Below, in pieces: positions 703 through 27,266 of a stretch of DNA of 64,000 bases. How positions within the stretch are numbered: position 1 is the stretch's first letter; each line of letters begins with the position of its first letter. The position numbers and the translations under genes are program-made. Source of the DNA: Candidatus Peregrinibacteria bacterium (lineage in GTDB: Bacteria; Patescibacteriota; Gracilibacteria; UBA1369; LOWO2-01-FULL-3); NCBI GenBank assembly GCA_016206505.1, contig JACQRJ010000036.1, positions 365 to 64,364 of the forward strand, in the 5' to 3' direction. The notes under the pieces are model-generated. The model was not told where the DNA came from. It did not search any database and was given only the letters and a program-made list of their open reading frames with translations.

Positions 703-1878
703 TTATTGGCCGGCATAAAACTCAGCTTCTCCCACCACTTTGCCGTTTTTCAAAAATACAACCTTATATCCTCCCCCAAACATACCGCCAAAATTGTTCG
801 ACAAAATCTGCTCATCCAGAGTGGCATAAGCATAAAGCTCACCATTACAAGCTTCTTCAACTTTTATGCCCTTTTCGGAAGCCATTAAAACCCATTCCTG
901 GCGCTCGATTACGTTTAAATTAAAATCATCGGTTCCTTCTCCTTCGTAATCAATTTCTTCATGCATCCATTTCACATCCAGCACATCTCCTGCAATTCCA
1001 TACTGATTTATCTTTGCAAAAGCATGAAGAACACGGCCAAAATTTACATACCAACGTCCCGGATCGGATTGAGGTACTTTTGAAGCTGTTGGCGGATAAA
1101 ATGAAGTCTCGCAACGATTTGGCACATATTCTGATTTTCTTGCCTCATATCCCAAAGCATAGACAAAATCAGTCACAATAATATCTGAAACAATATCATT
1201 TGGCTTGAGCGCATTACCGGCTTTATTGTCCAGATAATATTTTTCAGCGGCAGCCGCATCACGATTTTCCACATAATCACTCCAAAAATCGATCTCCGCT
1301 ATACACAAATCCTCATATTTTGAACCGGCATAAACATCTTCAATAACAAATTTCACCGCTTTTGTTTCCTCGCCTTCAAAGTCAAAAAATTGCATTCCGT
1401 ATTTATCCGGTAAATCATAAGAAGCGAAATCCTGAAATTTACCTTCTTCATCTTGAAACTGCACTTTCAGCTTTTTTACGCGCTTGTTTTGATTGTAAAT
1501 CTCAGCATCACGAGCAAATCCTGGAACAATTCCCATTTTGCCTACTTTCACATAATCGGCAAAATTCATCACAAGCTCGGCTCCGGTTTTGCCGTCAGCC
1601 GCACACCATGCAGTTGAAAAATCACGATCAAAAGCCATTTCAGGCGCATAATTAAAGCCGATTTTTGATTTATCCTTCAAAACTGAACTGGCGGAAACTT
1701 GATAATCTTCAACTTCAACAAGCTCCGGTGCAGGAAATCTCACTTCTTTAACTTTTTCAACTTCTTCAGTACGATCAACTTCTTTTGATTTTTCTACCGG
1801 CTTCACAAGCGGATCTTTTGGAGCACAAGAAGTCAGTACAAAAACAAGAAGAAGCAAACTCAAAGACTTTTTCAACAT
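703..1878 (-). CDS. Secreted lipoprotein with a discoidin / F5-8 type C (galactose-binding-like) domain
   Basis: The signal peptide has a lipobox (MLKKSLSLLLLVFVLTSC). The central segment AFDRDFSTAWCAADGKTGAELVMNF...KVQFQDEEG...EDLCIAEIDFW matches the usual discoidin-domain pattern (D..STAW...ISE+.F). Confidence 0.65.
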   Translation of the reverse strand: MLKKSLSLLLLVFVLTSCAPKDPLVKPVEKSKEVDRTEEVEKVKEVRFPAPELVEVEDYQVSASSVLKDKSKIGFNYAPEMAFDRDFSTAWCAADGKTGAELVMNFADYVKVGKMGIVPGFARDAEIYNQNKRVKKLKVQFQDEEGKFQDFASYDLPDKYGMQFFDFEGEETKAVKFVIEDVYAGSKYEDLCIAEIDFWSDYVENRDAAAAEKYYLDNKAGNALKPNDIVSDIIVTDFVYALGYEARKSEYVPNRCETSFYPPTASKVPQSDPGRWYVNFGRVLHAFAKINQYGIAGDVLDVKWMHEEIDYEGEGTDDFNLNVIERQEWVLMASEKGIKVEEACNGELYAYATLDEQILSNNFGGMFGGGYKVVFLKNGKVVGEAEFYAGQ

Positions 1879-4158: not shown

Positions 4159-5409
4159 GTGCTAGATTTTCAGCAACTTCTAACCAAAAAATCTATGGAA
4201 AAAATCACTGAAAATCAGGCGGGCAGCATTGATCTCCATCGTGAATTTCGCAAACTTACTTTCGACATTCACAAGATGAAAAATCGCCTGATGATGCTCC
4301 TTCTCGAAATTTATGAGCAGGAAATCTACAAAAAACATAATTGCACAACAATCTACGAATACGCTTTTAAATATGCAAAACTTTCAAAAGAAACAGTGCA
4401 GTTGGCGCTGCGAACTTTGAGAAACACCGAGGATAAACCGCTACTTCGAGCACAAATCGAAAGCAAAGGCATCTATAAAGTGGCGATTGTAGCCAAACTG
4501 GCAACGCCGGAAACTGAAAAATTCTACGCCGGACATGTGCAAAAAATGAGGAAAGAGGTACTTTTTGCATTTGCCAAGGAGGTGAGAAAAAGCGAAAACG
4601 AAGTGGGAAATGTGAAATTTGAGGCAAAATGCTATGCCGTTGTACCAAAAGTGAGCATCGAACTTGACGCCGAAATGCAAACAATTTTCAATCAATTGAA
4701 AAAAGAATATGGCAAAGATTTATCAAACAAGGAGGCGTTGAGAGTGATTTTGAAAAAGTTGAAAGAGAATGAAAATGCAAAATCAAAAAATGTTCCCAAA
4801 AACGTGCCGCCACAAGTAAACCCTAGGACAGAAATGCAATCAACAAGCCAAGAAATCGAAGTGGATTTCATTCCCGGGAACGGAATTTCAATCGAAAATC
4901 AAATTTCAAAAATCTCCTCTGCCAACACGACTCCACAAACTCAAAAAACAACACAATCATCAGACGCGCTCCTACCCGCTCAACCGCCAAAATTTCCATC
5001 CCACACCATTCCGCGTGAAACAAAACGCGAAATCGACATCAAACAAAATCACAAATGCGCATATCCCAATTGCGTAAAATCAATCGAAAATTATCATCAC
5101 AAAATCCCATTTTCCTTCAGCAGAAGCCACGAATCCCTGGTCGGCCTTTGCAAAACCCACCACGAGTTTTGTCACCACGGAATAATCCGCCACGAACTGG
5201 ACGAGCCAAATCACTGGCGACTCAACATCAAACCGGCAAGATCGCAATTTGACAATTTTTTTCTAAAATACAAAGCACATGAAAAAAACTCACCCGCCGC
5301 ACGCGTGCCATTCCCTAAAAAACCTCACTCCAAAAATCCTGCACATCCTGCCCCATTTGACCAACCCAACCTACAGCCTTACGCACAGGCTTTGGCACAA
5401 TTGCCCTAA
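4159..5409 (+). CDS. HNH endonuclease-domain protein (DUF222-like N-terminal region, C-terminal HNH)
   Basis: The C-terminal motif CAYPNCVKSIENYHHKIPFSFSRSHESLVGLCKTHHEFCHHG is an HNH/zinc-finger signature. The start is GTG at 4159 or ATG at 4195. The last ~95 nt overlap the convergent gene at 5315-5902. Confidence 0.75.
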   Translation: MLDFQQLLTKKSMEKITENQAGSIDLHREFRKLTFDIHKMKNRLMMLLLEIYEQEIYKKHNCTTIYEYAFKYAKLSKETVQLALRTLRNTEDKPLLRAQIESKGIYKVAIVAKLATPETEKFYAGHVQKMRKEVLFAFAKEVRKSENEVGNVKFEAKCYAVVPKVSIELDAEMQTIFNQLKKEYGKDLSNKEALRVILKKLKENENAKSKNVPKNVPPQVNPRTEMQSTSQEIEVDFIPGNGISIENQISKISSANTTPQTQKTTQSSDALLPAQPPKFPSHTIPRETKREIDIKQNHKCAYPNCVKSIENYHHKIPFSFSRSHESLVGLCKTHHEFCHHGIIRHELDEPNHWRLNIKPARSQFDNFFLKYKAHEKNSPAARVPFPKKPHSKNPAHPAPFDQPNLQPYAQALAQLP

Positions 5410-5902
5410 CAACACTTACAACACCTCGATCGACCATTCGCTTGCCCCTACCAAGCATCTTCCACCCCTTACCGGCAAAATCAATCCCTACATCTTTCAA
5501 ATCAGACAGCAAGCCAAAAGTTTTTGCTATCATCCCACCACCAACACGTCGCTTAACATAACTTTCATATTTTGTCTTAATCATCGAATTATTCAGATTT
5601 ACAATTCTTGTGACTCTCCAGAAATCTTCCAAAGCTCTATTCAATGACGCAATTTGTTCTTTATTGCCCTTAGCACGTATCGCAGCAGACTGATCAAAAG
5701 TTAATGCACAAGCGTTTGCAAAATCGCCATAAGCATCAGCATAACGCTGAGCAGCATCATAAATACGATGAGGATTTTCCTCATCCCGCAGAGCTCTAAA
5801 TTTTCTGACACACTCAGCGGCAGATCCATAGAAATATTTTGCAACTTCTATAAATTCCTGTGGCAGATCGGCCGAGGACTCATTTTTTGTTTCAATACTC
5901 AT
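5315..5902 (-). CDS. Hypothetical protein (196 aa from the internal ATG)
   Basis: The track ORF is 5315..6067. A near-consensus promoter lies inside its first 55 codons, so I place the start at MSIETKNESS (ATG 5902). No family recognised. Confidence 0.5.
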   Translation of the reverse strand: MSIETKNESSADLPQEFIEVAKYFYGSAAECVRKFRALRDEENPHRIYDAAQRYADAYGDFANACALTFDQSAAIRAKGNKEQIASLNRALEDFWRVTRIVNLNNSMIKTKYESYVKRRVGGGMIAKTFGLLSDLKDVGIDFAGKGWKMLGRGKRMVDRGVVSVVRAIVPKPVRKAVGWVGQMGQDVQDFWSEVF

Positions 5903-5933
5903 TTTTGTTTTAGTTAAAAAGAAACCTGGGAAT

Positions 5934-5962
5934 ATCATACAATAAATGACGGATGGCGTCAA
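5934..5962 (-). promoter_or_regulatory. Sigma70-like promoter, TTGACG-17-TATGAT
   Basis: The minus strand reads ccacTTGACGccatccgtcatttattgTATGATattccc. The -35 is at 5957-5962 and the -10 at 5934-5939, with the -10 ending 31 nt upstream of ATG 5902. Confidence 0.45.
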
Positions 5963-6106
5963 GTGGCCAACCTGACATTCCAGGAAAATTCCATATTCAA
6001 AGTGTGAATATTGTTTAGTACTAGCCGAACAACGGTTTCGTAAATCCTCTAACGATTTGCGTTTCACAGGTTCTTTCGCTCGAAGCGATCAAAAAATAAA
6101 TTATAA

Positions 6107-6862: not shown

Positions 6863-9223
6863 CTACCGCGAAACCCCGCCCGAAAAATCCCCTTCCGCCA
6901 AGGCAATGCCATAAAGCTCCTCCAAAGTGTATTTCCCCTCAATAACCAAAGGAGTTTTATCAACAGTCACATAAACATTTGTAGCCATTTCGCCATTCAT
7001 CAAAAAATCAAAAGTCAAAAGCACTTTGTCATTTTCTGAAATTTGCGCACCCTTGACACGATAAACCGCATTCAATTCATTCACGACTTCAACATTTTCC
7101 ATTTCCAGAATAAATCCGGCCTCCCCAACTCTCTTTGCCACGAAACTGCGAGCGAAACGCTGGGCATAAGTCTCAACACTTGGCTCTTCCTTGCCATCTT
7201 CAGCCGTAACTTCCGGCACAATATTCGCAAATTTATTGCTCAAAATACTGAAAAGACTGGAAAGCTTCACCGCACGATCGGAAATCAATTCATCATAAGC
7301 ATAAACCTCTTTTATCAGACCAGAGTCGCGATCATACATGCCGGTTATCGGATAGCCCTGCACCGTCGCGGCAATTTTCACAAAGCGCTGACTTAAATCG
7401 GTAATCGGATCTATTTTCAAATTATCGATCCCCGAAACTTCGGCAAAAGCCTGGGTAATTTCGACGACAATTGTGGCCTCCGTAATTTCTTTCGGACTGT
7501 CTCCCAAGACATCTTCCTGAACATTAACAAAATTCCAGATACGATCTTTTTCGCTTAAATATGATTCGTATCGTGCTTTTTGAGTCAAACCGTATGTTTT
7601 TGAAGTCTGATACTCGGGAGTATTCAAAAATCCCCAAAAATCGGCAATTTCAGCCAGTTCGGATTCAAAAATTTCCACCACCGCTACGCTTGAAGAAAAT
7701 TCCGGCATCAACGCGTTGATCTCTGCAACAAGCCTGGAAACAATTTTTTTCGCCGTTACAACATTCACTTTTTCTCCAAAAAAATAAGCCATCAGACGCT
7801 TCAAAAAAGTGATTTTTGCAGTAATCAGTGTCTGTTTCAGCTCGTTTTTCATCTGTCCATCCTGATAAAGCTTAAGTAAATGCTCTTCTAGCACATTTTT
7901 CATCGCAAAATACCCGTCCTTGTAGAACAAAGGCGAAGAAAGCAGAAGATTATCAAACAACTGATTATTGAACGTAATGTAATAAAACAAATAATCGTCC
8001 GAAGCGTTTTGAACCAGACTCGCATCAAAATATTTGTAATAACTGTTAAGAACATCTTCGGCAAGCACGCTATTTTGCTCAAGTCCTTTATAGACATTGA
8101 GCCATGCAAGATTTACCACTTCAAAAACATCGCGTCCGGAAGCAAACTTGCGACTCAAAAGCTCTTTGGAAATTTTATATTGTTCATCAGCAACATCGAA
8201 AATCGCCAAGCGCTGAAGGTAAGCATCATAGCGCTGATAAAAATCCTCGGATGTCTTAAGCTCAAGCGGCAAGCTACTCAAAGCGCCGTCAAATTTCTCC
8301 ATACTAACGCCAAAATTTGCGGTATCAGCTTCAGACAAATAAAAAATCGCGTCATCCAGATAGCCGAAAAGATGCTCAAATAAAATTTCCTTCTTTTTCT
8401 GCGGTACAAAAGTGAGATTTTCCTCCGACCAAAACAAAAAACGTCCCACAAAACCGTCATTCGCAGATTTACCGCCAAAAATAACCCTGGTGGCAAATTC
8501 ACGTTTCTTGGCTTCCAAAAGCGCATCATCATCGGCCATATTTGTTTTTACCCAATCCGAAGCAAAAACCGCACCTGCAATCGCAACGTACTTAAATTCT
8601 TTAACCAACTTAGTATAAAGCAACTTCTCATAGCGCTCATCCAATTTTTTCACATTGATACTGATGGATCTGCCGCGAGGCACAAGGAGCTTATTCACAA
8701 AAATACTGTCATAAGGATCTTTTGCATCCGTCAAGCCGACACCCTTTTGCAAAAATCCCACATAAACATCCCCATCAAAAACCATCAGATTCAAATGATC
8801 GCCATCAAATTCCAGATCAAAAACGGCATGATTCGGCACAATAACGACATTTTCACCTACAAGCAGGTTTTGCCATCGCGTACTCAATTTGAAATTTCCC
8901 CACAGCTTCACACTTTCGGAAATAGCTACAGCATCATCAAAGAGCTTTTTCAGAGGTTCATCGACTGATTTTTCTTCATCGAATCGCAAAATAATATCAT
9001 CGGAAAAAAATGGGGAAAAATTCTGTTCGGAAGCCGTAGGAGAGGCAAAAACGCCTTCAAAATAAAAAGTTCCGACGACCAAAAACAAGGTAACAAGGCC
9101 AAAAACGGCAAACTTTACAAAAACGGGCATTTTTGAGTCCCTTTTCAAGTTTTTTTCTTCCAAAGAAGTCATTTGTTTACATAAAGATAATCCCTCAATT
9201 ATAGCAGAAAAAAGCCAAAGCAT
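6863..9223 (-). CDS. Large membrane-anchored hypothetical protein (up to 786 aa)
   Basis: One N-terminal TM helix (FVKFAVFGLVTLFLVVGTFYF) followed by about 720 aa with no recognised domain. Alternative starts are ATG 9172 (MTSLEEK) or 9130 (MPVFVKF). Confidence 0.7.
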   Translation of the reverse strand: MLWLFSAIIEGLSLCKQMTSLEEKNLKRDSKMPVFVKFAVFGLVTLFLVVGTFYFEGVFASPTASEQNFSPFFSDDIILRFDEEKSVDEPLKKLFDDAVAISESVKLWGNFKLSTRWQNLLVGENVVIVPNHAVFDLEFDGDHLNLMVFDGDVYVGFLQKGVGLTDAKDPYDSIFVNKLLVPRGRSISINVKKLDERYEKLLYTKLVKEFKYVAIAGAVFASDWVKTNMADDDALLEAKKREFATRVIFGGKSANDGFVGRFLFWSEENLTFVPQKKKEILFEHLFGYLDDAIFYLSEADTANFGVSMEKFDGALSSLPLELKTSEDFYQRYDAYLQRLAIFDVADEQYKISKELLSRKFASGRDVFEVVNLAWLNVYKGLEQNSVLAEDVLNSYYKYFDASLVQNASDDYLFYYITFNNQLFDNLLLSSPLFYKDGYFAMKNVLEEHLLKLYQDGQMKNELKQTLITAKITFLKRLMAYFFGEKVNVVTAKKIVSRLVAEINALMPEFSSSVAVVEIFESELAEIADFWGFLNTPEYQTSKTYGLTQKARYESYLSEKDRIWNFVNVQEDVLGDSPKEITEATIVVEITQAFAEVSGIDNLKIDPITDLSQRFVKIAATVQGYPITGMYDRDSGLIKEVYAYDELISDRAVKLSSLFSILSNKFANIVPEVTAEDGKEEPSVETYAQRFARSFVAKRVGEAGFILEMENVEVVNELNAVYRVKGAQISENDKVLLTFDFLMNGEMATNVYVTVDKTPLVIEGKYTLEELYGIALAEGDFSGGVSR

Positions 9224-9321
9224 AAAGCCCGAGATATAGAAAATTCACACTTGAAAATAAAAGCTTGATAAAAGCGCAACATGTAGTAGCATTCATCCCC
9301 AGTATTGAATTACCGCACATC

Positions 9322-12300
9322 ATGAGTACAGAAAAAAAACAACTGGAAGATGCTCCAAAAGCCGCCGCTGAAGCACCAGACAGACAAGGGCAAAGAGAAG
9401 CGCAAGACACCGTTGATTTGGACAGCATAAGCGATGACCCCGGTAAACGCATGGCTGCCGTATGCCGATTAACCGGTGGACTGGAATCCAAGGAACTTCC
9501 TGGAGTGATTCTTGAAGTAGGCCTAAAAACAAAAAAGCCCAGCGAAGATTTTGCTACAATTACATCAATAGTGCACGCACTTTTTGGTCAAAAATTAACG
9601 CCAAAATGGTCACCAAAAGGCACAATTGTCTTCCAATTTTCATTTCCAAACAGCGACCAAGCGCAAACTGCAGTTTATAGGATAAATACAGCATTCAACG
9701 ATTGTGAAGAGGGAGCTACTCTGCGATTTGGAATGACTGACGAGCCAGCGGAAATTTCAACTCACGACGGACATGTCCTGCTTGCAGGACCTGGGAGTAA
9801 AGTCGCATCAATTAAACGCAAAAATGGAAGAGACCCAAGGATCAACAGCAAAATAGAAGGCAGGGATCAAATCGTTACGCCAAGCGAAATGAGAAGACTA
9901 TCCGTCCCATTCAGAAAGGACATAAGTCCCCGAGCCGCAGAACATGCAGAAACAATCACTCAATCGCCTACAGAAACAATCAGACAAGCTACAGAAGTAC
10001 TTATCTACCTGCCGAAAATCAGCGATCATGAAATAAGAGCCAGAATGACAGCATACGTCATTGAAGCATTGTCACGCCACAACGCCCGCATACTAGACAG
10101 CACAACAGACCCAATCAGAATTTTCATTGCTGAAGAACGCGCTGTAGGAAATCTTGGTCAACGATTGGCTCAAAGATTAAAAAATTACGAAAAATACCAA
10201 ATAGGGATTATAGCAAGACATGCAAACATAGAAACGGAAATTTTGGATGATGGAACTGTCATAATTCACACAGATACACCTGACCCTTTAGACATAGGAA
10301 GACCAAAAGCAGGTCTTTGGATGGACGAAGCAACCCTGGATCTCGCAGGAAATGCGCGCAATCGCTCACTGGCAACATTCACAACAGAACGCGAGAGCGA
10401 AAGAGGCTTTACAAAAGTCAAAGCAATTAAATCGGCAGAATATAGACTAATCACTGATGCAAGTCACTTAGTAGGCAGGGAAGCTGAATCTGGAGCAATC
10501 ACAGCACTGCTTCAATCAGTCAGAAACGAAAAACGACCACGATTTATTACAGTTCTGGGAGAACCCGGTATCGGCAAAACAGAACTGGTGGCTCAAGTAC
10601 TACAAAATGCGGAACGTACGGGCTTTCGTGTTGTTTCCTACAAAATACCGGAAGATGGCACATCACAACATAGAAGCACTGTAAGTAAACTCATCTCCGG
10701 CTTGCTACCGCTATTCAGCGCTCAAGGCGGCGACACGTACGAAATACTCAGGTCATTTGCTGAAGGCCGCACACCGAAAGGAAGCCCACTGGCCACGACA
10801 ATTGAAACTTACAAAAGCAATCCGGCAAGATTGGCAAAAATATTGGCAGAAGCACTGCAAGAAGCTGCAAAAGGAGGGCCAATTGCTCTTGCAATTGATG
10901 ATTTACAATGGACTGACGAATTCAGTAAAATAGCATTAAGCAAACTGGCAGGAGAATTAGCAAACGATCAAAATCCTCTTGCTTTAATTTTTCTCGGACG
11001 TATCGCAGAACAATCTACCACAAGAGAAATCACTGAAGCGGCAATAGAAAAAAATCACACAACGCAGGAAATCAGACTGGCGCCACTATTTAATGATGGA
11101 ACAGCAGAAGCTGAAAGAACACATTTGACTGAGGAATTAATCCGATCACATCTACCACGAAGAATGAGAAGTGCAGTCATACCTCAAACATTTGTACTTG
11201 AAATGATGGCATTTTCAAGAGGATTGCCAATCATCATAACTGAAACCTTGGCACTATTAAGCCAACGCAACCAGCTAAGCTCAAGAGCCGGAAGCCTGGT
11301 GGTACCAGCCACAGCAGCACTAGAGGAACTCTCAAGAAAAGAATCCAGCGCCACATTGGCCTCGATTCTCGAACGCCGACTGCAATTGTTACCACCGAAT
11401 GAAAAATTGGTTACAAATTTGATGGCAATAGTGGGAACAATTGATCTGGAAATTTTTTATCATTTACATGAGAAAATTTATGGAGATGAACATGACCTTG
11501 ATAAAACAATTGATGCACTGGTCGAAAAAGACATTGTTCGAAAATCACCACTGGCCTTTGCCAATGACAGCATGCTGGCAATTTGCAAATCACAAGGGGC
11601 AACAAGTGGCGCTCAATCTCAAATAGCCTACGACTCATATGGGGCTTTGCGAGTATTGCAAGCATCTCGACCAGCATTGGCACCCAAGATAACTCCAAAA
11701 CTGGTATATGAACTCCTTCAAAAAGCTGGCACAGGCGGACAGGAAATGCTCGATTCGGCAACCGGTGCAATAAGATATTGTCTGGATACAAGGCAGCACA
11801 GAGCCGCTATCCGAGCAACAGAAACCTTAATTACAACTTTGGAAATCCATACGGAAAGAACATTGCGCAAACAAGAAGCAGAAGCAGATGAGGATGAAAT
11901 GAAAAGACTATCAGAATTATTAGCAACAAGCTACCAGCAAGCAGCTGAAACCTATCTCCGGGTTGAGGACCATGCAAATGCCAAAGCTGCACTAGAAAAA
12001 CTTGATGAATTGCGGGACCAAATACCTGCACTCGCATCGTTATTTGATGGGAAAAACGGATTAGGTCTTTTTGTACTAAAACTGCGTGCAGCTCGCATCG
12101 CACCACGTAGCGAAGCTGATGGGGAAAAAACAGTGGCATTAACCGCATTGGAAACAGCAATCAATACACTCAGCCCTGGTGATTCAGAATCGGCAGAAGC
12201 AGAAAATCCCCAAATCACGCTAGCAAGAGGCGAAGTACTTGCCAGAAAAATGCAAATCTTAAGTGATAATCAGGATCGAGAGGGCATCGAAAAAATAGAT

Positions 12301-13332
12301 CATGATGGCTCTGTCAACGATCAAATCTTGAAACTTATGCGACTTGGAAGAGTGGGCAATGATCCTAAAACAAAAAACGCTGCCAAGGCGTTGGCTCAAG
12401 ATTTGGAATCAAAATTAGTCCAAATTCGCTTCCATCTCATCGATCGATTAGATATTGCAGGCCCTGTTGGAGAAGAAGCGTTATACCTTCAAGTACCAAC
12501 AGAAATACAACAAAGAATTTTACGGGAAAATAATAGGAGATTTAAAGAATTAATAGAGCTCTATGCCACAAAACCCGAACTGTTGAGAGATCCCGACACA
12601 TACGGATACCTACTTGAAGGCATGGCACGCATCAAAATTTTGCTCGCCAATACCGGCACAGACAGCGAAACCCATGCAGAAGCAGAAGCGGCAATCGAAA
12701 AAGCTCTTGAAGTGGCAACCAATTTCGATCTGCCCCACATTATCTGCCGCACGCGCACGACACGAGGCAACTGGCTCATCGCAAAATCACTATCTACCTA
12801 CAATCCAAACAGAGGTTTAAGAAATTCAAGGGTAAATAAAGACCAACTGGAAAATGCCATCAGAGAATTTAACCTTGGAATCGCTGAAATGGCACGTGGT
12901 CAACAATTGGATAACGACAACGCCAAAGAAGCAATGGCATACAAAGCCATGGCAACAGCAATCTTGATTATCAGTCACCCGCCTCAGACCCCAGCAGAAA
13001 AAGATCTCCGAACTCAACAATTGCTAGAAGCATGGGAAAGGCACCGCATTGTTTTGGAATATCTATATAATTTAAGAATGCAAAATTCTGCATTTGCAAA
13101 ATACTATTACAATGAACTCTCAAACACTGGGCTCTTGATTCAAGCGGGACAAATCCTTGGAATTGCGGCCACTCTAAATCTTCCGACAAACATCCGAAAT
13201 CTATCAGATGACTTTACAGCTGCATTAAGAGGCTCGACGAGGGACATTACCAGCATGAGAGATTTGTCACCCGGCAGCCAACGCCTTCTGCACCTAAGAA
13301 AAGAAGGCATAGCAAATTGCTCTACTGGATAA
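9322..13332 (+). CDS. Giant STAND/AAA_16-type NTPase (paralogue A): two degenerate cyclase-like alpha/beta modules, P-loop NTPase, long helical-repeat (TPR-like) tail
   Basis: LVGREAESGAITALLQSV...ITVLGEPGIGKTELV (Walker A, nt ~10558-10581). IALAIDDLQWTDEFS (Walker B, nt ~10891-10911). SRGLPIIITETLALL. About 650 aa of alpha-helical repeat sequence follow. The track ORF starts at TTG 9265; I prefer ATG 9322 (MSTEKKQ). Confidence 0.85.
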   Translation: MSTEKKQLEDAPKAAAEAPDRQGQREAQDTVDLDSISDDPGKRMAAVCRLTGGLESKELPGVILEVGLKTKKPSEDFATITSIVHALFGQKLTPKWSPKGTIVFQFSFPNSDQAQTAVYRINTAFNDCEEGATLRFGMTDEPAEISTHDGHVLLAGPGSKVASIKRKNGRDPRINSKIEGRDQIVTPSEMRRLSVPFRKDISPRAAEHAETITQSPTETIRQATEVLIYLPKISDHEIRARMTAYVIEALSRHNARILDSTTDPIRIFIAEERAVGNLGQRLAQRLKNYEKYQIGIIARHANIETEILDDGTVIIHTDTPDPLDIGRPKAGLWMDEATLDLAGNARNRSLATFTTERESERGFTKVKAIKSAEYRLITDASHLVGREAESGAITALLQSVRNEKRPRFITVLGEPGIGKTELVAQVLQNAERTGFRVVSYKIPEDGTSQHRSTVSKLISGLLPLFSAQGGDTYEILRSFAEGRTPKGSPLATTIETYKSNPARLAKILAEALQEAAKGGPIALAIDDLQWTDEFSKIALSKLAGELANDQNPLALIFLGRIAEQSTTREITEAAIEKNHTTQEIRLAPLFNDGTAEAERTHLTEELIRSHLPRRMRSAVIPQTFVLEMMAFSRGLPIIITETLALLSQRNQLSSRAGSLVVPATAALEELSRKESSATLASILERRLQLLPPNEKLVTNLMAIVGTIDLEIFYHLHEKIYGDEHDLDKTIDALVEKDIVRKSPLAFANDSMLAICKSQGATSGAQSQIAYDSYGALRVLQASRPALAPKITPKLVYELLQKAGTGGQEMLDSATGAIRYCLDTRQHRAAIRATETLITTLEIHTERTLRKQEAEADEDEMKRLSELLATSYQQAAETYLRVEDHANAKAALEKLDELRDQIPALASLFDGKNGLGLFVLKLRAARIAPRSEADGEKTVALTALETAINTLSPGDSESAEAENPQITLARGEVLARKMQILSDNQDREGIEKIDHDGSVNDQILKLMRLGRVGNDPKTKNAAKALAQDLESKLVQIRFHLIDRLDIAGPVGEEALYLQVPTEIQQRILRENNRRFKELIELYATKPELLRDPDTYGYLLEGMARIKILLANTGTDSETHAEAEAAIEKALEVATNFDLPHIICRTRTTRGNWLIAKSLSTYNPNRGLRNSRVNKDQLENAIREFNLGIAEMARGQQLDNDNAKEAMAYKAMATAILIISHPPQTPAEKDLRTQQLLEAWERHRIVLEYLYNLRMQNSAFAKYYYNELSNTGLLIQAGQILGIAATLNLPTNIRNLSDDFTAALRGSTRDITSMRDLSPGSQRLLHLRKEGIANCSTG

Positions 13333-13585
13333 TATTCGGTGTCGGGGAAGGGAATAACTGCTGCTCCAAATTAGGAGTAGGAGATGGAAATATTTGCTGC
13401 TCCAAAAATCTATTGTTATAAAGATTTTTTGGAACCTTTGGATTTCTTAAGATGGATGACTCAAAATCCACGGGAACCAAAATTCTATAGAGAAAAATCA
13501 AAGAAACAATCACCGCTCCGGTAAGAAGTCCAAGCCAAAATACAACCATTGGATGCACCTGTGCCATTGAAACTGTTTTGCTCAT
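13322..13585 (-). CDS. Small single-pass membrane protein with a C-terminal tandem 12-aa repeat (EQQ[IL]FPSPTPN[LI] x2)
   Basis: TM helix VVFWLGLLTGAVIVSLIFLY. The two 36-bp repeat copies (13331-13366 and 13367-13402) differ almost only at synonymous third positions (ttc cct tcc ccg aca ccg vs ttt cca tct cct act cct). That argues this frame is translated. The start is ATG 13585 or 13567 (track: 13633). The 3' end overlaps the paralogue A stop by 11 nt. Confidence 0.6.
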   Translation of the reverse strand: MSKTVSMAQVHPMVVFWLGLLTGAVIVSLIFLYRILVPVDFESSILRNPKVPKNLYNNRFLEQQIFPSPTPNLEQQLFPSPTPNIIQ

Positions 13586-13668
13586 TTTTATTTTTGTTAG
13601 TTTTCCATCTAAACTGATTAAATTATACAACAATCACTCATCACAGTCAACAAAAGCTTGCCAGCATT

Positions 13669-13729: not shown

Positions 13730-16700
13730 ATGGCAACAACCGGAAATCCAGACGCTACTGATCCTGACATAGAAGATCCTCTAGCGGCACCAACAAGGCC
13801 ACTACCGCTCATCAAGCCCACACAAGCCTTACCACTCAACGAACCCACACAACTTTTAGTCAAAAAGCCTAAAAATCCAGACGAAAATCCGAAAGGAACT
13901 GCAGATACAAAATTTCAGAAGGAATACCTTGCATCAAGCCCCGAAGCAATTCGGGAACCCGCCGGTCAAAAAGCCGCTTCACAAGCGGGCATCGAAAGAG
14001 ACGGCGAGCTAAAAGAAATGCCCGGAGCAATCCTGGACATTGAATTACGCCTCTCCTCTCATTTCAAAACAGATCAGTACCCAAAAAAAGCATTTGCCAT
14101 AGTTAAAAGTGCAATTGCACATTTTCAGGGAGCGTTACTTCATTTTATCCCGACGCCAAAGGGCTATTTGAGATGCCAATGCATCTTCCCAAACAGAGCC
14201 CAAGCGCACAACGCAGCAGTTTACATTCACCAGAACACTGATAACGACCCTGATCATCATGCACCCATAAAAAAAGCCAAATTCGGTCTTGCTCAAGATC
14301 AAAGCCACTTAGCAACCTGCAACGGTCATCTGCTTGTATTCGGAAACGCCGCCAGAATGGCCATGAAACTTCAACATGCAAATCCGGAAACGGCCGAAGT
14401 TCCGGTAGTGGCAACCTACGAACATTCGGCAGATACAGAAAAAGAAACAATCCTGGGTAATTCACTTAGGGAAGAAAAAATAGAGGAAAAGAAACCATTA
14501 CATTCCCGCGAAACAGAAAGGTCCAGAAATCACGCCCACGAAGCCGTACGCCTGCCAAATCCTGATTTACCGCAAGTAGCTTCCCGCGTTGAAATCCGCT
14601 TTCCAAGAAACCTTGCACAAAATCCGGCGGAAACATTAAAAATCGCCACCGGATTTATCGATGCCATCGCGCCTCACCCCATGTCAAAAGGCTCAAAGTA
14701 CAGCCCGACTCACGCAATTCTCACCGGCCAAATTCTGACTATCTATCTCCCTGAAGAACGCGCTCCGGGCAATTTAGGTGAAAGACTCGAAAGCATGGAA
14801 CAGGAAATCCGGAAAAACGGCTTGATCATAATTCTTTCCCACAGCCGATATTCAGCCGTTGCACTCGATGAAGATAATCATACATTTCAGGGAGCACTGC
14901 CGCCATCCGCAACTCTGGGGGAAGATCTTGATCTGGATACAGAAAAAGGAAGTGCCGGTATTTACCTTGATGATCATTTTAAAGAAGCGGCCAGCCACGA
15001 ACGCAATGCCTCGATAGCAGTTTTTGTTACTGAGACTAAAGCAAGTCTACAAGTGCCTAAAGCTGTACGCTTAACAGCTACCCAAAGAAAAAAAACAGGA
15101 CGGGACAGCGAACTTCACCACGAAAATCTCTACAAAGTCCAAAGAATAGAAATTGCCAAAGAAGCCGTAGTCAAAGGTAGATTTACAGTGGGACGTGAAA
15201 AAGAAATAGCAGACCTTAATGCGACATTGGAAGCGGTACGAGACGGAAAAACCGCAAAATTCACCATTATCAATGGTGAAGCCGGCATCGGCAAAACCAG
15301 ACATGCGGTAGACGCAATCCGTCTGGCCGAAGAAAAAGGCTACTGTTCAGTTTATTACAAAACGCCGGAAAACGGCAAGACGTCTTCACTTACCGGCGTG
15401 AGAAGAATGACCAAAAGTCTCCTGGCAAAACTTGGCGGCGACGCCGGAGAAACTTTCCGCGATTTACAATTTTTCAGCCTCGGAATAGTGCCTCCCGGTG
15501 AAATAGACGCCTACGGAAAAAGAGTCGAAGCTCTCAATCAAAATCAGGTTCTGGCCGCCGAAAGACTCACCGCACTGATTGTTCAGTGCGCACAGACCCG
15601 GCCGCTTCAGCTGATTCTGGACGACCTTCAATGGTTCGACGAATTATCAATCGCGATTTTAACAAGGGTAATACAGGAAATCCCTCAGGAAACTCCTTTG
15701 CACCTTGCACTTTTGGGCAGAAGCGGCGAAGAACCGATTCCGCAGGATCTTACCGATGCCATGTCCGCAAGAGCTGGACACTATCACGAAACTTCACTCA
15801 GAAGAATCGGCAACGCGGCGCAAATCAGAGCAGAATTACTCGAGGAAGAGCCTGAAATGCATGACCCCCAACTCCAAGATCGCATTGATCAAAAACGCTT
15901 CAAATTAACCAAAGATTACATTTACTCCAATCTTCCTGAAAATTGCGCGGATGCAGAAATCGCCGACGGCTTTGTGTGGAAAATCCTGGAAATATCCGAA
16001 GGATTGCCGATAGTAATCTCCGAAACGGTCGCACTGCTTTTGGAAGAAGGCAAAATAGAATTGAGAGGTTCAAGCATCTCTACGCCCAGTAACGCAGAAT
16101 TGGATACGATGAAGAAAGACAGCACAAGCGAAACATTGAGCACAATTATCCAGGCAAAATTTGATCGCTTAAGCGAAGATGAAAAAACGATTATTGATTA
16201 CCTTGTCGTACTGAGAGAAACTGATTTAAGGCTTTTTGCCGGACTGCTCAAGTATTTGAGACTTTCAGAAGAAAGAATCCGGCAATCCCTCAGCGCTTTA
16301 AGTCAAAAAGGACTGATTAGAACCAATCCGGTTGGTTTCACACACGATCTGATTCAAAAACAAAGAAGAGATCAGCTAAAGGATATTGGATCTCTTTCAC
16401 GCAAAGCAGCAGCCTGTTACTTGCCACTGGCCGCAAATCGCAGCCGCTTTGCAAATCTCATTTCTCCAAGCCAACTTTTTGAACTTCTGGAAATTGCTCT
16501 GGAAAATCCCGAAGAACATAGAATAAAAGTACGCACAAAATTACTGGAAGCACAAGTACCGCTTGGACTGGAAGCAGCCGATCACAGCCTCCAGGTTCAA
16601 AATCAATACAGAGCGCTACAAATCGTGGAAACACTTGAGTCACAACTGACCAGCGAATTTGCTCCCTATCTCTATCCGCCAAAATCAGAAGAACCCGATG

Positions 16701-18229
16701 CGGAAGCAAAAAAAACAGCCCTGGCACTAAATCTCAGTGAAATTCACCTACGAGCTGCGGAAGCCCACATCCGTCTCGGCCACAAAACCGAACCGGAAAG
16801 TGCTCTCACAAAATACGCCCGGCTATCTGCAAAAGCACCCGAGGCAAAAGTCCAGGAAGGCGAAAGAGGCTTTCGTTACAAAGTTCTGCGTCTAAAAGCC
16901 GCTTTTGCACAAAGATCCCGGGAAAAACTCGGAGAAGCGCTTACAGAATTGGAAGGCGCGCCCGAACTTGTCGCTTTAAGAACTGCCCTTAAAGAAGCTA
17001 CCGTTGTTCAAGACACAGGATTACAACCCCATGTCATGATCGCCTATGGAGAACTCATTATCGCAAAATTAAGACTTGCGGGAGCCAGACAAAGTCAGGA
17101 AGCACAGGAAGCATTGGATGCGGTTCTTCCGGAAGCGGAAAATATCATCGCAATGCTAAAAACGGATACAACATCTGCCGAAATTAAAGCTCTGCGAATT
17201 GACATCGAAAGAACAATCGCTATCAACGAAGCTCATATTTTCCGCAAACAAATTCGTGGCAACGTCGAAGATGCCTTATACATGGAAGAATTCACTACTG
17301 AGCAGCAAGCAAAAGCGGCAGAACTGGAACAAACACTGATCGGAATTTTGCAAACCTATCTTACAGACACACAATTGGTCAGAGATCCCCAAACTCTGGG
17401 CTTTCTGTACGAAAGAATAGTTGAAATGCAAATTATTCAAGACCATCGCGACGAAGCCAGAAAAACAACAGAAAGAGGTCTTCGTTTAAGCCACAACTGG
17501 GGCATTCCGGAAGCAGTCAGCGCTTTAAACATGCTTGCTGGCGATGAAAAGACAACACAGCAAATTGCCAAAATCGACCTTACACATATGGAAACCATCG
17601 ATTCTGCAAAACATTTTGACGAAGCACTGCTCATAGAAGCTCTGGAAAACTATACCCAGGGAATTTTGGCAATGGAAAGAATGGGAGCCACAAATGCCGT
17701 GCACATCCAAACCAATGTCGTAAACAGAACAACTTGCATGGCACTATATGCATTTTCAAAGCTTGCAAAAAATCCGGAATTTGACACCAGCAAAAGCAAT
17801 ACAGCAATGATAATGCGCATGCCAACAATCGAAACCGTACAAGAAATGGAAGCGTTAAAGGCACAAATCCGGGAAACCTGGAATGTGATGATTAGAGTTC
17901 TGTTACAATTAAGAGACAACTACAACCCTGCAAAACCTGCAAACGAGCCGCAAAACCAAGCATACTTGCAGGAGTTAAGCGGATTGGGACTGCTTTATAA
18001 AGCCGCGCGAAGAATAGGAATAAGCGACATTGCCATCCCGGATTTCATCGACACTTCAGAAATTTTATCCGAACGTCAATACTTACAACAAATTGACGAA
18101 AAACCACAAAAACCGCTATCACAAGCCGACAAAAAGTATCTCAAATTAAGAAAAGAAGGCATAGTAGCTCTTATACCTGGCGGCGAAGATACAACAATTT
18201 CTCTGGCAGACCTTGATGAATTGCTGTAA
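13730..18229 (+). CDS. Giant STAND/AAA_16-type NTPase (paralogue B), same architecture as paralogue A
   Basis: TVGREKEIADLNATLEAV...FTIINGEAGIGKTRHA (nt ~15275-15298). LQLILDDLQWFDELS. SEGLPIVISETVALL. Long helical tail. It is collinear with paralogue A from the N-terminal modules to the C-terminal LRKEGI motif. Confidence 0.85.
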   Translation: MATTGNPDATDPDIEDPLAAPTRPLPLIKPTQALPLNEPTQLLVKKPKNPDENPKGTADTKFQKEYLASSPEAIREPAGQKAASQAGIERDGELKEMPGAILDIELRLSSHFKTDQYPKKAFAIVKSAIAHFQGALLHFIPTPKGYLRCQCIFPNRAQAHNAAVYIHQNTDNDPDHHAPIKKAKFGLAQDQSHLATCNGHLLVFGNAARMAMKLQHANPETAEVPVVATYEHSADTEKETILGNSLREEKIEEKKPLHSRETERSRNHAHEAVRLPNPDLPQVASRVEIRFPRNLAQNPAETLKIATGFIDAIAPHPMSKGSKYSPTHAILTGQILTIYLPEERAPGNLGERLESMEQEIRKNGLIIILSHSRYSAVALDEDNHTFQGALPPSATLGEDLDLDTEKGSAGIYLDDHFKEAASHERNASIAVFVTETKASLQVPKAVRLTATQRKKTGRDSELHHENLYKVQRIEIAKEAVVKGRFTVGREKEIADLNATLEAVRDGKTAKFTIINGEAGIGKTRHAVDAIRLAEEKGYCSVYYKTPENGKTSSLTGVRRMTKSLLAKLGGDAGETFRDLQFFSLGIVPPGEIDAYGKRVEALNQNQVLAAERLTALIVQCAQTRPLQLILDDLQWFDELSIAILTRVIQEIPQETPLHLALLGRSGEEPIPQDLTDAMSARAGHYHETSLRRIGNAAQIRAELLEEEPEMHDPQLQDRIDQKRFKLTKDYIYSNLPENCADAEIADGFVWKILEISEGLPIVISETVALLLEEGKIELRGSSISTPSNAELDTMKKDSTSETLSTIIQAKFDRLSEDEKTIIDYLVVLRETDLRLFAGLLKYLRLSEERIRQSLSALSQKGLIRTNPVGFTHDLIQKQRRDQLKDIGSLSRKAAACYLPLAANRSRFANLISPSQLFELLEIALENPEEHRIKVRTKLLEAQVPLGLEAADHSLQVQNQYRALQIVETLESQLTSEFAPYLYPPKSEEPDAEAKKTALALNLSEIHLRAAEAHIRLGHKTEPESALTKYARLSAKAPEAKVQEGERGFRYKVLRLKAAFAQRSREKLGEALTELEGAPELVALRTALKEATVVQDTGLQPHVMIAYGELIIAKLRLAGARQSQEAQEALDAVLPEAENIIAMLKTDTTSAEIKALRIDIERTIAINEAHIFRKQIRGNVEDALYMEEFTTEQQAKAAELEQTLIGILQTYLTDTQLVRDPQTLGFLYERIVEMQIIQDHRDEARKTTERGLRLSHNWGIPEAVSALNMLAGDEKTTQQIAKIDLTHMETIDSAKHFDEALLIEALENYTQGILAMERMGATNAVHIQTNVVNRTTCMALYAFSKLAKNPEFDTSKSNTAMIMRMPTIETVQEMEALKAQIRETWNVMIRVLLQLRDNYNPAKPANEPQNQAYLQELSGLGLLYKAARRIGISDIAIPDFIDTSEILSERQYLQQIDEKPQKPLSQADKKYLKLRKEGIVALIPGGEDTTISLADLDELL

Positions 18230-18239
18230 TTTGCGGCTC

Positions 18240-19859
18240 ATGAAAAAATTATTTCAATTAACAACAATCGGCCTTTTTATCTTCCTGATGCCATTTGAAG
18301 CGATGGCATTTTACGAAGATGTTGCAGAAAATCATCAATACTACAATCCCATCAAAGCATTGTACGAACTTCAAAAACTGCCTGAAGACACAAATTTCAA
18401 ACCGGACGACAAACTTACCAACTCAAATTTCTACAAGCTTCTAAGCACTTTTGGAGGCACGAAAATTGCAACCGATGAAAATCTGAATCCTGCAAATTTT
18501 CCGCCAAAACATCGCATCCTCTCCGAAATGTTTTACTACCTTGGCATCGGCACCAATTATCTCTTTGATAAAGAAAATTTCTATTTCCTGGATTTGGACA
18601 AAAATTCACCCCTCTCCCCCATCGCCCAAAAAGCTTCAGAAATCGGCATTGTCGAAGACAAAGAAGATCAGCAATTTTTCAAAATGGCCCAACGCCTTAC
18701 AAATGCGCAGGCCGCCGACTATTTATACAAAATTTACCTCTACAAAAACCCCGATGCTCTGGAAGAAAAGCCCAATGCCATCAATATAATCACCATCACA
18801 GAAACCACGGAAGATACGCGGGAACTTGGCACTTTTGTCGATGTCTGGAACGTCTTAAAAAACTATTATTTTTACAAGGAAGAACTCGATGAAGAAGCGA
18901 TGATTTACGATGCCATAGAGGGCTTGCTCAAGACCGTACCCGATGATTACACCGGATTTAGCGAACCTTCCGAAGCGGAAGAATTTTTTGACAGTCTGGA
19001 AAATGAATTTGAAGGCATCGGCATTATGATCGAAATGGTCAATGAACAGGTCACAATCATCAGCCCCCTTGCCGATTCCCCAGCTCAAAAAGCCGGACTT
19101 CTGCCCAATGACATTATTTCAAAAGTTGACAATGAAAGTATCACCGGCCTAAATCTCGATGCTGTAGCCAAAAAAATCAAAGGCCCCGCACAAACTGTCG
19201 TAAAAATCACGGTTTTGAGAAATGAAAAAGAGCTCATTTTTGAAGTCACCAGACAAAAAATAACCCAGGAAGCCGTAACCGGCAAAATTATCAAGGAAAA
19301 TGGCAAAAAAATCGCCTATATCAAATTGACCACTTTTGGCCAAGATACGGCAAAAGAATTGGAAAAAACGGGCAAAGAACTTTTGCTCGACAATCCCAAA
19401 GGATTCATTCTCGATCTGCGCAACAATCCCGGCGGCTACCTCAACTCCGCCATCGAGATGGTCGGCCTGTTTTTGAAAGAAGAAAAAACAGTAGTAAAAG
19501 TCAAATCGGCAAGCGGCCTAACGGAAGAATATAAAAGCGCCGTCGATGGAACTCTTGCCGGACAAAAAATCGTCATCATTATCAACAAAGGCTCCGCTTC
19601 CGCTTCGGAAATCCTAGCCGGCGCGCTGCAAGATCATGAAATCGCGACATTAATCGGCACAATTTCTTTTGGCAAAGGCACCGTTCAAAACATCAAAAGC
19701 TACAAAGACGGCTCGATTTTCAAATACACTATGGCCAAATGGCTCACCCCAAAAGACCGCGACATCGATAAAATCGGTCTGACTCCGGACAAAATCATCG
19801 AAAACGACACTGCAACAACAGAAGACGAACAGCTAAAAGCGGCTTTGGCGGAGTTCTAA
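18240..19859 (+). CDS. ctpA: Carboxy-terminal processing protease (S41 family) with a PDZ domain and signal peptide
   Basis: Signal peptide MKKLFQLTTIGLFIFLMPFEAMA. PDZ-like segment GIGIMIEMVNEQVTIISPLADSPAQKAGLLPNDII. S41 motifs LDLRNNPGGYL and GSASASEILAGALQD. The track ORF starts at 18213; ATG 18240 avoids overlapping the upstream gene. Confidence 0.85.
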   Translation: MKKLFQLTTIGLFIFLMPFEAMAFYEDVAENHQYYNPIKALYELQKLPEDTNFKPDDKLTNSNFYKLLSTFGGTKIATDENLNPANFPPKHRILSEMFYYLGIGTNYLFDKENFYFLDLDKNSPLSPIAQKASEIGIVEDKEDQQFFKMAQRLTNAQAADYLYKIYLYKNPDALEEKPNAINIITITETTEDTRELGTFVDVWNVLKNYYFYKEELDEEAMIYDAIEGLLKTVPDDYTGFSEPSEAEEFFDSLENEFEGIGIMIEMVNEQVTIISPLADSPAQKAGLLPNDIISKVDNESITGLNLDAVAKKIKGPAQTVVKITVLRNEKELIFEVTRQKITQEAVTGKIIKENGKKIAYIKLTTFGQDTAKELEKTGKELLLDNPKGFILDLRNNPGGYLNSAIEMVGLFLKEEKTVVKVKSASGLTEEYKSAVDGTLAGQKIVIIINKGSASASEILAGALQDHEIATLIGTISFGKGTVQNIKSYKDGSIFKYTMAKWLTPKDRDIDKIGLTPDKIIENDTATTEDEQLKAALAEF

Positions 19860-22981: not shown

Positions 22982-22985
22982 AGAT

Positions 22986-24485: not shown

Positions 24486-24487
24486 GG

Positions 24488-25720: not shown

Positions 25721-25727
25721 ATAAAAA

Positions 25728-26009
25728 TTATTTCTTCATTCCCTTAAGCACCTTCTTAATCCTCTTCACATACTCCTCATTTTCACCAGTCTCCGTATAC
25801 CGATTCACCGGATCGCTACAAACAGCGCACTTGCCCCTAAGAATAACGTCGTTCAAATCATTCACAGTAGTCTTAAAATCAACAATCGTCACGACTTCAT
25901 TGCAGGTATGACAAAGGCAATTTGGTACGATTTTCTCCACAAAAAAATCCCAGTCTTTCCCCCAGATGGTTTTGAGTTGCGGTAACGTGAGTGGCATTTC
26001 TTTTTTCAT
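25728..26009 (-). CDS. Small zinc-ribbon protein (93 aa) inside the R-M operon
   Basis: Cys pattern CLCHTC...x25...CAVC. It is tightly packed, 3 nt after the rhuM stop and 7 nt before the hsdS start. Confidence 0.6.
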   Translation of the reverse strand: MKKEMPLTLPQLKTIWGKDWDFFVEKIVPNCLCHTCNEVVTIVDFKTTVNDLNDVILRGKCAVCSDPVNRYTETGENEEYVKRIKKVLKGMKK

Positions 26010-26012
26010 AGG

Positions 26013-27071: not shown

Positions 27072-27089
27072 AATAAATTACGTTAAATA

Positions 27090-27266
27090 TTATTTTTTAT
27101 TTACCGTGGTGGCATCAATAAATTCAAAGCTGTTCATTAAAAACCACTCGCATGGATCAAGCAATTTTTCACACAACGGACACTGGTAGTCAACGTTGCC
27201 AACCTGAATTGCATTTTTATAATCATGTCGGCAAATTTTTTTCTTATTTTTGAGGCGTTTAGTCAT
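27090..27266 (-). CDS. Small Cys-rich (putative zinc-finger) protein, 58 aa, inside the R-M operon
   Basis: MTKRLKNKKKICRHDYKNAIQVGNVDYQCPLCEKLLDPCEW... The track ORF (27090..27326) overlaps the hsdM 3' end; the internal ATG at 27266 lies 13 nt after the hsdM stop. Confidence 0.45.
   Translation of the reverse strand: MTKRLKNKKKICRHDYKNAIQVGNVDYQCPLCEKLLDPCEWFLMNSFEFIDATTVNKK

Follow-up and report, generated by a model that had tools for sequence, protein, structure and literature searches.

The window analysed here, 64,000 nucleotides of contig JACQRJ010000036.1 from a Candidatus Peregrinibacteria bacterium, encodes two large paralogous proteins, A (9322–13332, plus strand; 1336 residues) and B (13730–18229, plus strand; 1499 residues). 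In the predicted structures of both, a tandem cyclase-homology fold sits at the effector position of a STAND ATPase, an assignment that we regard as close to established. Because most of the catalytic residues appear to have been lost and module 1 is without helix α1, the head formed by the tandem is most likely a pseudo-cyclase. We lean, with modest confidence, towards a reading in which a relic pocket or surface of this head would bind a ligand or a partner, with binding coupled to the ATP-dependent switch. Combinations of cyclase and STAND modules were known before, in bacteria with a single active domain and in animal soluble adenylyl cyclase (sAC) with tandem C1 and C2 domains. The family adds a tandem, single-chain C1–C2-like head on bacterial STAND proteins that has diverged past sequence recognition and is under strong purifying selection. 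As a cyclase fold carried on a STAND switch without the canonical chemistry, it could show what the fold itself contributes, be it ligand sensing, allostery or assembly.

Domain architecture and predicted fold

Paralogues A and B align over their full length (25% identity, E = 3e-93) and share one architecture. The open reading frame and translation of A comprise a disordered N-terminus, the tandem cyclase-fold head, an AAA_16 STAND ATPase and a helical tail of ~780 residues. The reading frame of A is open already from a TTG at 9265; translation from the ATG at 9322 yields 1336 residues and matches the gene call in the Logan assembly (P0013). The NCBI version (P0002, 1275 residues) begins at the Val of G-V-I-L-E-V (GTG at 9505) and cuts off a family-conserved N-terminal motif together with the modelled lead-in helix and strand. 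This lead-in motif (PG..A...GI..D.e.KELP; 9421–9504, plus strand) precedes module 1, is kept in nine of the ten family members described below and was modelled as a helix and a short strand with a predicted local distance difference test score (pLDDT) of 84–91. The ATPase core of A (residues 383–556; 10468–10989, plus strand) was identified by Pfam with E = 9.7e-20 and contains the Walker A motif GEPGIGKT (10558–10581) and the Walker B motif LAIDDLQW (10888–10911). The corresponding core of B (residues 487–657; 15188–15700, plus strand; E = 3e-16) carries GEAGIGKT (15275–15298) and LILDDLQW (15611–15634). The tail of A was covered by a PDB sequence search with the C-terminal 954 residues, which gave no match, and Pfam reported a weak TPR_8 match in A. 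No hydrophobic N-terminal segment is present in A or B. The AAA_16 core, the Walker A and B motifs and the helical tail place both proteins among the STAND NTPases of the AAA_16/MalT-like type.

The heads, taken as the 380–490 residues upstream of AAA_16, gave no Pfam match in A or B even at E ≤ 1, and the Guanylate_cyc model (PF00211) gave none at E ≤ 10 in any of the ten family heads. The NCBIfam and PADLOC models likewise gave no match in the heads. A search of PDB sequences with the head profile returned no cyclase and only a chance Piwi match (E = 2.2). Modules 1 and 2 showed no detectable similarity to each other in hhalign (probability 0.3%). For comparison with known cyclase-homology domains (CHDs), an alignment was assembled from C1 and C2 of sAC and the CHDs of three plasmid proteins; the sAC C1–C2 query sequence was identical to PDB entries 4oya/4clf over 469 residues. 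Against this small alignment each module reached a local hhalign probability below 1%, and the global-mode alignment was meaningless. Despite the low probability, the local alignments follow the register expected from the topology. The hairpin G-N of module 2 falls on the canonical G-D, and the ERxPGN motif lies at the junction of strand 3 and helix 3, where canonical domains read G-x-P.....N-D.

The family was collected by searching 1.84 billion representative proteins exhaustively with an HMMER profile of the aligned heads of A and B. Besides A and B, this search returned eight other proteins (1242–1443 residues) and one spurious repeat protein. In each of the eight relatives a head precedes a G-x-G-K-T P-loop and a long tail, as in A and B. 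The family amounts to ten clusters among the representatives. The clusters of the relatives contain between one and three sequences, without exception from metagenome assemblies, and the window sequence occurs in groundwater metagenome runs. When the A head was searched against a word index of 5.8 billion proteins, no homologue appeared. The word-indexed search with the ten-sequence head profile gave no match either, and that with the ATPase region of B gave one uninformative match; the word index seems blind to the head family. A scan of GTDB genomes with full-length A returned no homologue of the head; its matches were distant proteins in which AAA_16 is joined to kinase, BTAD or other heads, and these loci contributed no cyclase domain for comparison. 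An exact look-up of B in the contig index gave no record. The extreme rarity of the family, which is met only in uncultivated metagenome bacteria, is a practical limit. The ten-sequence alignment and a fold search nevertheless resolved ~350 residues for which no database match exists.

AlphaFold2 models were built from the ten-sequence alignment of the family heads, with A modelled over residues 34–384 and B modelled as the first sequence of the same alignment. For the A head the mean pLDDT was 82.5 (77.5–82.5 over five models) and the predicted template-modelling score (pTM) was 0.81. The B head, which has two disordered insertions, reached 75.1 and 0.78, respectively. DSSP assigned strands 29–36, 57–62, 68–75 and 100–106 and helices 40–53 and 78–93 to module 1 of A (model numbering), with more strands after these. 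Module 2 has strands 189–196, 222–226, 232–236 and 262–274 and helices 203–218 and 241–258, with further elements onward. The B model has the same secondary-structure order, and both modules of both heads thereby display the β-α-β-β-α-β order that had been suggested in the original prediction.

The models were compared with the PDB using Foldseek. The first 21 matches of the A head are all the two-domain catalytic core of human sAC, the best being 4clk (sAC C1–C2; E = 1.3e-10, query template-modelling (TM) score 0.55, 468 alignment columns). The soluble C1–C2 domains of AC9 come next, followed by single class III cyclase domains of bacterial and animal origin, among them Rv1900c and Ma1120 with target TM scores of 0.55–0.56; against single CHDs the target TM score reaches 0.58. 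The B head matched 5d0r best (E = 6.1e-10), with the matches ranked as for A. Entries 7pdd_A and 6r4p_A form a second tier (E ~1e-8), and chains of soluble guanylyl cyclase (sGC) follow at ~1e-4. The alignments to sAC and AC9 cover ~465 columns and span both modules, with TM scores of 0.46–0.58 and a sequence identity of 7–10%. There were 52 matches for A and 45 for B at E ≤ 1e-3, and the top 50 are almost all class III cyclases; no GGDEF, ACT or RRM protein occurs in the 50 top PDB matches listed for A and for B. Matches in the viral structure library BFVD were weak, and the meaningful few are proteins with guanylate-cyclase domains. The ferredoxin-like palm core with extra strands that characterizes the cyclase-homology fold was found in the models of both paralogues, and in these predicted models the two modules together match the pseudo-heterodimer geometry of class III cyclases. 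The proposals that the head is a palm or cyclase-homology fold and that the tandem mimics a C1–C2 pseudo-heterodimer are both supported: class III cyclases are the best matches of both paralogues, led by human sAC and AC9, in which two cyclase domains share one chain. Neither an unrelated fold nor a confident match to another family emerged from the Foldseek and profile searches. Since the models of A and B give the same ranking of cyclases, the fold and the tandem pseudo-heterodimer are supported for both.

An artefact would be a different explanation of these matches: AlphaFold2 could have paired generic ferredoxin-like domains of the ACT, RRM, GGDEF or Cas10-palm kind. The models do rest on only ten sequences and have no sequence-level support, the TM scores are moderate (0.46–0.58) with a root-mean-square deviation of 7–9 Å over both domains, and the B head also gave a weak Cas10 match (8s9t_C, E = 1e-4, TM score 0.23). 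The pTM values of 0.78–0.81 and the mutual closeness of the five models speak against an artefact, as do the almost exclusive class III cyclases among the best matches, the scores against single CHDs and the agreement of the viral library. The head also sits where genuine CHDs precede AAA_16, and its hairpin Gly and Pro motifs echo those of CHDs. We consider an artefact very improbable.

The module boundaries differ from those first given. Module 1 of A (residues 62–185, model residues 29–152; 9505–9876, plus strand) is a minimal C1-like fold, defined by DSSP on the AlphaFold2 model, Foldseek and the family alignment. It has E65 in its first strand, a G-T hairpin where G-D is expected and an FPN motif. 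The inter-module linker (9877–9984, plus strand) contains a helix at model residues 170–176 and bears the family-invariant H208 (9943–9945). Module 2 of A (residues 222–371, model residues 189–338; 9985–10434, plus strand) is a fuller C2-like fold, delimited by DSSP, Foldseek and conservation, with P231, the motif EERAVGN (10132–10152), an LD pair and an RN pair (10357–10362). The AlphaFold2 model and Foldseek place module 1 of B at residues 100–215 (14027–14374, plus strand), with D-I-E-L in the first strand, a G-Y hairpin and GNAARM in the α4 region. Module 2 of B (residues 283–475; 14576–15154, plus strand) carries the two disordered insertions, the motif EERAPGN (E343, G347) and RN at residues 425–426. 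The peptides quoted in the original prediction were all found in frame in the two open reading frames. Its tandem modules stand, although its estimate of ~110 residues for each is too short for A (~125 and ~150 residues). Its end of the A head at 10350 is too early and leaves out the invariant RN pair along with the final two strands of module 2, and its end of the B head at 14890 falls ~260 nucleotides short of the end of module 2.

A cyclase domain at this position of AAA_16 proteins had been expected from known examples, and such examples exist: in three plasmid proteins annotated as adenylate/guanylate cyclases the domains run SAM, Guanylate_cyc, AAA_16, TPR, and full-length sAC (sACfl) has its cyclase domains in the same place (PMC12802110). 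The likeness to ADCY10/sACfl lies in two different CHDs that form a one-chain pseudo-heterodimer, followed by a STAND P-loop module and a long helical region (PMC12802110). A and B have this domain order by fold and sequence of domains, and sAC is the best structural match of both heads (E ~1e-10, both modules covered). The role of the predicted STAND P-loop domain that follows C1–C2 in sACfl is still unexplained, even after purification of the full-length protein (PMC12802110). The differences are considerable. sAC has the full catalytic set D47, D99, K334, T405, N412 and R416, as checked on the PDB sequence, whereas the window proteins have at most one of these, and D99, K334, N412 and R416 have no conserved counterparts in the family. 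The C1 domain of sAC is much larger than module 1, and the host of the window is bacterial. No sequence homology to ADCY10 or its orthologues, nor their catalytic and bicarbonate site, was found (7–10% identity, no profile signal), and the likeness to sAC in particular need not mean common descent.

Bacterial cyclase–AAA_16–TPR proteins, such as WP_008345339.1 (Caballeronia), WP_064253132.1 (Sinorhizobium americanum) and the mycobacterial Rv0386 type, resemble A and B in that a CHD immediately precedes an AAA_16 STAND core, which is followed by a TPR tail. In tblastn their ATPase cores showed weak similarity to the core of A (E of 1e-4 to 5e-4). They differ in having a single canonical, homodimerizing CHD (Guanylate_cyc E of 1e-17 to 3e-27) that retains D..GD and N..R, whereas the window family has two non-identical degenerate modules that cannot be detected by sequence and lacks SAM and LuxR domains. 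The cores of membrane adenylyl cyclases (AC9, AC5/AC2) and heterodimeric sGC are, like the heads, pseudo-heterodimers, with one catalytic and one degenerate site; unlike A and B they are eukaryotic and catalytically competent and belong to membrane or heme-sensor architectures, not to STAND proteins. A and B probably work like, and descend from, a cyclase–STAND protein. As the head gives no cyclase signal in sequence profiles or catalytic residues and has the fold and dimer geometry of a cyclase, it is not filed as a cyclase.

Catalytic positions and conserved residues

Catalytic positions were mapped manually by a topology-anchored reading of the ten-sequence family alignment. The first strand of module 1 carries an acidic residue in eight of the ten members (E65 in A, Asp in B), and a near-invariant Thr five residues later is an echo of D-I-x-G-F-T. 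The hairpin Gly of module 1 is retained, and the residue after it is T in A, Y in B and K, E, N or T otherwise, not the second metal-binding Asp. Module 2 has G-N or T-D-P in its hairpin and an invariant Pro near the end of strand 1, approximately at the site of the canonical metal-binding Asp. The E-V-G-L of A and D-I-E-L of B that had been noted at the first-strand site were seen in the alignment, and neither protein has the G-D hairpin. The accompanying statement that the metal-binding Asp pair is missing holds in part: the second Asp is absent throughout the family, and the first acid survives in 8/10. The two metal-binding Asp residues of class III cyclases are thus not found together in the family.

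Only one helix lies between strands 1 and 2 of module 1, which indicates that the short phosphate-binding helix α1 is missing. No conserved Lys for base recognition precedes the hairpin Gly in the ten-sequence alignment, nor is the Asp/Thr that accompanies this Lys in canonical domains conserved. A conserved Asn-x-x-x-Arg is also absent from this alignment, the α4 regions of both modules being variable, and the N..R pair is missing across the family; the original prediction had noted only a vague echo of this motif in B. The GNAARM of B has N-x-x-R, which is the wrong spacing, and is confined to the B orthologues. Some features recall canonical CHDs, namely the hairpin Gly, the Pro motif after strand 3 and, in four members (B, P0003, P0004 and P0005), a Thr in a Y/H-T-I/F-Q-G stretch that resembles Y-T-V-I-G of sAC. 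From the aligned residues we infer that the canonical two-metal cyclase chemistry has been lost, with at most one metal-binding acid left.

The residues that are conserved are different ones. Seven positions are invariant (A numbering): T147, H208 of the linker, P231, E272 and G276 of EERAVGN, G331 and R346. About 12 more are near-invariant, including N347, L308, F338 and A351, against a family identity of only 20–28%. The linker His is invariant in 10/10 and in 12/12 sequences. The ERxPGN motif has an invariant E and an invariant G, and its R and its N (N277 in A) are each retained in eight of the ten members; the N of the RN pair is retained in nine. EERAxGNLGxRL had been singled out earlier as the best conserved stretch, and the family alignment agrees. 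Among the B orthologues from two related genomes, identity amounts to 78% in module 1, 75% in the ATPase core and 62% in the tail. A head as conserved as the ATPase core points to purifying selection and not to decay.

Proposed role of the head

We propose the following mechanism. Each paralogue is a cytoplasmic STAND switch ATPase of the AAA_16 type in which the usual output position is occupied by two very diverged class III CHDs in one chain. In the models, modules 1 (C1-like) and 2 (C2-like) pack as an intramolecular pseudo-heterodimer like the sAC core. The invariant residues (E and G of ERxPGN, R of RN, the linker His and the Thr) and the strand-1 acid kept in 8/10 may mark a relic interdomain pocket or surface. 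Such a pocket could bind a partner protein or a small ligand such as a nucleotide or anion, and this binding would be coupled to ATP-driven opening and oligomerization of the STAND core, for which the sensor would be the long helical tail. The head would then serve as a regulated output or as an allosteric input of the switch, and not as a canonical cAMP or cGMP synthase.

Several points weigh against this reading. The invariant E, R, N and H would also fit a divergent active site. The catalytic mapping is a manual alignment anchored on topology, in which the strand register may be off by two residues. The models of A and B are not independent, as one shallow ten-sequence alignment underlies both. 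Two neighbouring gene products described below, an S41 peptidase and a 786-residue protein, seem to be extracytoplasmic, and their linkage to cytoplasmic STAND proteins may be mere conserved gene order. The lack of a receptor gene nearby opposes a second-messenger role, yet gives a sensor role no positive support.

In an alternative reading, the head would have activity as a nucleotide cyclase or nucleotidyltransferase of a non-canonical type, releasing a nucleotide signal when the STAND core switches on. A re-wired catalytic set would consist of the Asp or Glu in strand 1 of module 1, the Glu, Arg and Asn of ERxPGN, the RN pair and the linker His. The Pycsar pyrimidine cyclases are an example of cyclase-fold enzymes whose specificity has changed. 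In fold the head matches nucleotide cyclases, with a C1–C2-like interface, one metal-binding acid is present in 8/10 alongside several invariant charged or polar residues, purifying selection is as strong on the head as on the ATPase core, and the head occupies the effector position, as does the active CHD of CHD–AAA_16–TPR proteins. Set against this, the second metal ligand is missing in most members, module 1 is without the α1 phosphate-binding element, and the residues for base recognition and for the transition state are not conserved at their canonical positions. PADLOC found nothing in the head, and no receptor gene of the cyclic nucleoside monophosphate (cNMP)-binding, CARF or SAVED type occurs in the window or among the conserved neighbours of the related loci. 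On balance an active enzyme, although the foremost of the alternatives, appears rather unlikely. Neither paralogue qualifies as a component of Pycsar, CBASS or type III CRISPR Cas10 systems, there being no PADLOC match in the head and no linked receptor gene.

Alternatively, the cyclase fold may be a structural relic that acts as a platform for oligomerization or partner docking and has no small-molecule pocket. Its partner might be, for example, the other paralogue or the small membrane protein encoded between A and B, and the invariant residues would stabilize the fold or the interface. Several invariant positions are indeed structural (Gly, Pro and the Pro-Gly of ERxPGN at a strand–helix junction). 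The pairing of A and B in three genomes is compatible with hetero-oligomers, and the small transmembrane protein is conserved in 4/5 distinct loci. The invariant E, R and H and the near-invariant N and D, however, would be unusual for a purely structural role. Moreover, the relic site of membrane cyclases is where forskolin binds. Relic sites of cyclase pseudo-heterodimers are typically re-used for ligands, as in sAC, where the one degenerate, pseudo-symmetric site serves the regulator bicarbonate (PMC11006738). We therefore think a platform without a pocket unlikely.

A and B can also be set beside the Avs and other bacterial NLR-like defence proteins, in which a STAND core links an effector at the N-terminus to a helical sensor at the C-terminus. 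The hypervariable A gene described below likewise resembles the behaviour of immune receptors. PADLOC gave only three marginal matches in A (E of 9e-4 to 4e-3), all in the ATPase region (residues 364–506), and none in B; A and B further differ from Avs systems in that the nearby restriction–modification block is genome-specific and in having no demonstrated tie to phages. Cyclases go unmentioned in the main text of a survey of prokaryotic STAND/Avs families from 2026, and literature searches on bacterial pseudo-cyclase domains or cyclase-headed Avs proteins gave nothing specific.

Genomic neighbourhood

The two STAND genes lie in a cassette. Upstream of A, a 786-residue membrane-anchored protein of unassigned family is encoded divergently (6863–9223, minus strand). 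It gave no Pfam, NCBIfam or PADLOC match and has one transmembrane-like segment (residues 30–61). Proteins at the same position in related metagenomic loci are 79% (L024), 73% (L025) and 42% (L027) identical to it. Between A and B, a small single-pass membrane protein (~85–100 residues) is encoded in antisense orientation (13322–13633, minus strand); its core reads HPMV.FWLGLLTGAVIVSL and its tail is rich in Pro and Thr. At the same place in L024, L025 and L026 the identity is 65–67%; counterparts are at 8961–9260 (minus strand) in L024, 6845–7084 (minus strand) in L025 and 8070–8384 (minus strand) in L021, where the solo family member P0006 adjoins it as well (44% identity). The small membrane protein is a possible functional partner of the STAND proteins. 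A and B were also considered as one operon; this was rejected, as the conserved antisense gene lies between them.

Directly 3′ of B is an S41 C-terminal-processing peptidase with a PDZ domain and an N-terminal signal or transmembrane segment (18213–19859, plus strand; Pfam Peptidase_S41, E = 2.3e-49), the transmembrane-like segment being at residues 13–34. The probable start is the ATG at 18240 (MKKLFQ...), 10 nucleotides past the stop codon of B. The S41 gene directly follows a STAND gene elsewhere too, with 77% (L024), 77% (L025) and 43% (L027) identity. Their N-terminal hydrophobic segments suggest that the 786-residue protein and the S41 peptidase are probably extracytoplasmic.

The order of the cassette (786-residue protein, A, small antisense reading frame, B, S41 peptidase) is shared by the related metagenomic genomes L024 and L025/L026, in which the B orthologues are 59–65% identical (L024 and L025). 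The more distant L027 has the 786-residue protein, a single STAND gene and the S41 peptidase, at 42–43% identity. The A slot is hypervariable. A is only 26–27% identical to the genes in its place (4856–8971 in L024 and 2728–6861 in L025), whereas the flanks are far more conserved (61–97%; B 65% and 61%, the TraG-like ATPase 97% and 88%). P0003 and P0004 are 46% identical, while their B genes are 73% identical. This pattern of identities suggests diversifying selection or allele replacement at the A slot.

The neighbours allow a bolder form of the active-enzyme alternative, in which the head would be a re-invented cyclase-fold enzyme with a site made from ERxPGN, RN, the linker His and the strand-1 acid, producing a new nucleotide-derived signal on STAND oligomerization, with neighbouring proteins as effectors. 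We hold this to be quite unlikely. The effectors would be the small membrane protein and possibly the S41 protease and the 786-residue protein, an assignment just as doubtful. The hypervariable A and the conserved B would form a sensor and helper pair, as in paired NLRs, which we likewise rate as improbable. If true, a re-invented enzyme would represent a previously unknown bacterial signalling or immune module and a bacterial counterpart of the unexplained STAND half of sAC.

Beyond the cassette, a type I restriction–modification block of ~9 kb (19856–28857, minus strand) comprises hsdR, an AAA_21/DUF4435 (OLD-like) ATPase, hsdS, a RhuM-family protein and hsdM. In L024 and L025 the S41 gene is followed directly by the orthologue of the window gene at 28933–31434. 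The block has no counterpart in these two genomes, which marks it as an insertion that lies outside the cassette, and the restriction–modification, DUF4435 and RhuM genes were accordingly rejected as a component of the system. The gene at 28933–31434 (minus strand) encodes an 833-residue TraG/VirD4-type P-loop protein (HerA/AAA_10-like) that is unusually conserved, with 88–97% identity between genomes.

Upstream of the cassette, a protein with an NADase-translocation F5/8 type C domain is encoded at 703–1878 (minus strand). A 416-residue reading frame at 4159–5409 (plus strand) has an HNH-like C-terminus (CxxC...HH...CxxHH), a C-terminal end that recurs at the edges of L024 and L025. The 250-residue reading frame at 5315–6067 (minus strand) has a weak match to the immunity protein family Imm61. 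Farther downstream, a SecD/SecF fusion of 1103 residues is encoded at 51858–55169 (plus strand), with a PpiC-type peptidyl-prolyl isomerase domain inserted close to the N-terminus, at residues 271–394. The window also encodes AcrB, SecDF, gyrA/gyrB, chorismate synthase and TGT, and the organism is a diderm-type bacterium. Coding regions on the plus strand are strongly skewed towards A over T (AT skew 0.2–0.28), with a GC content of 39–47%.

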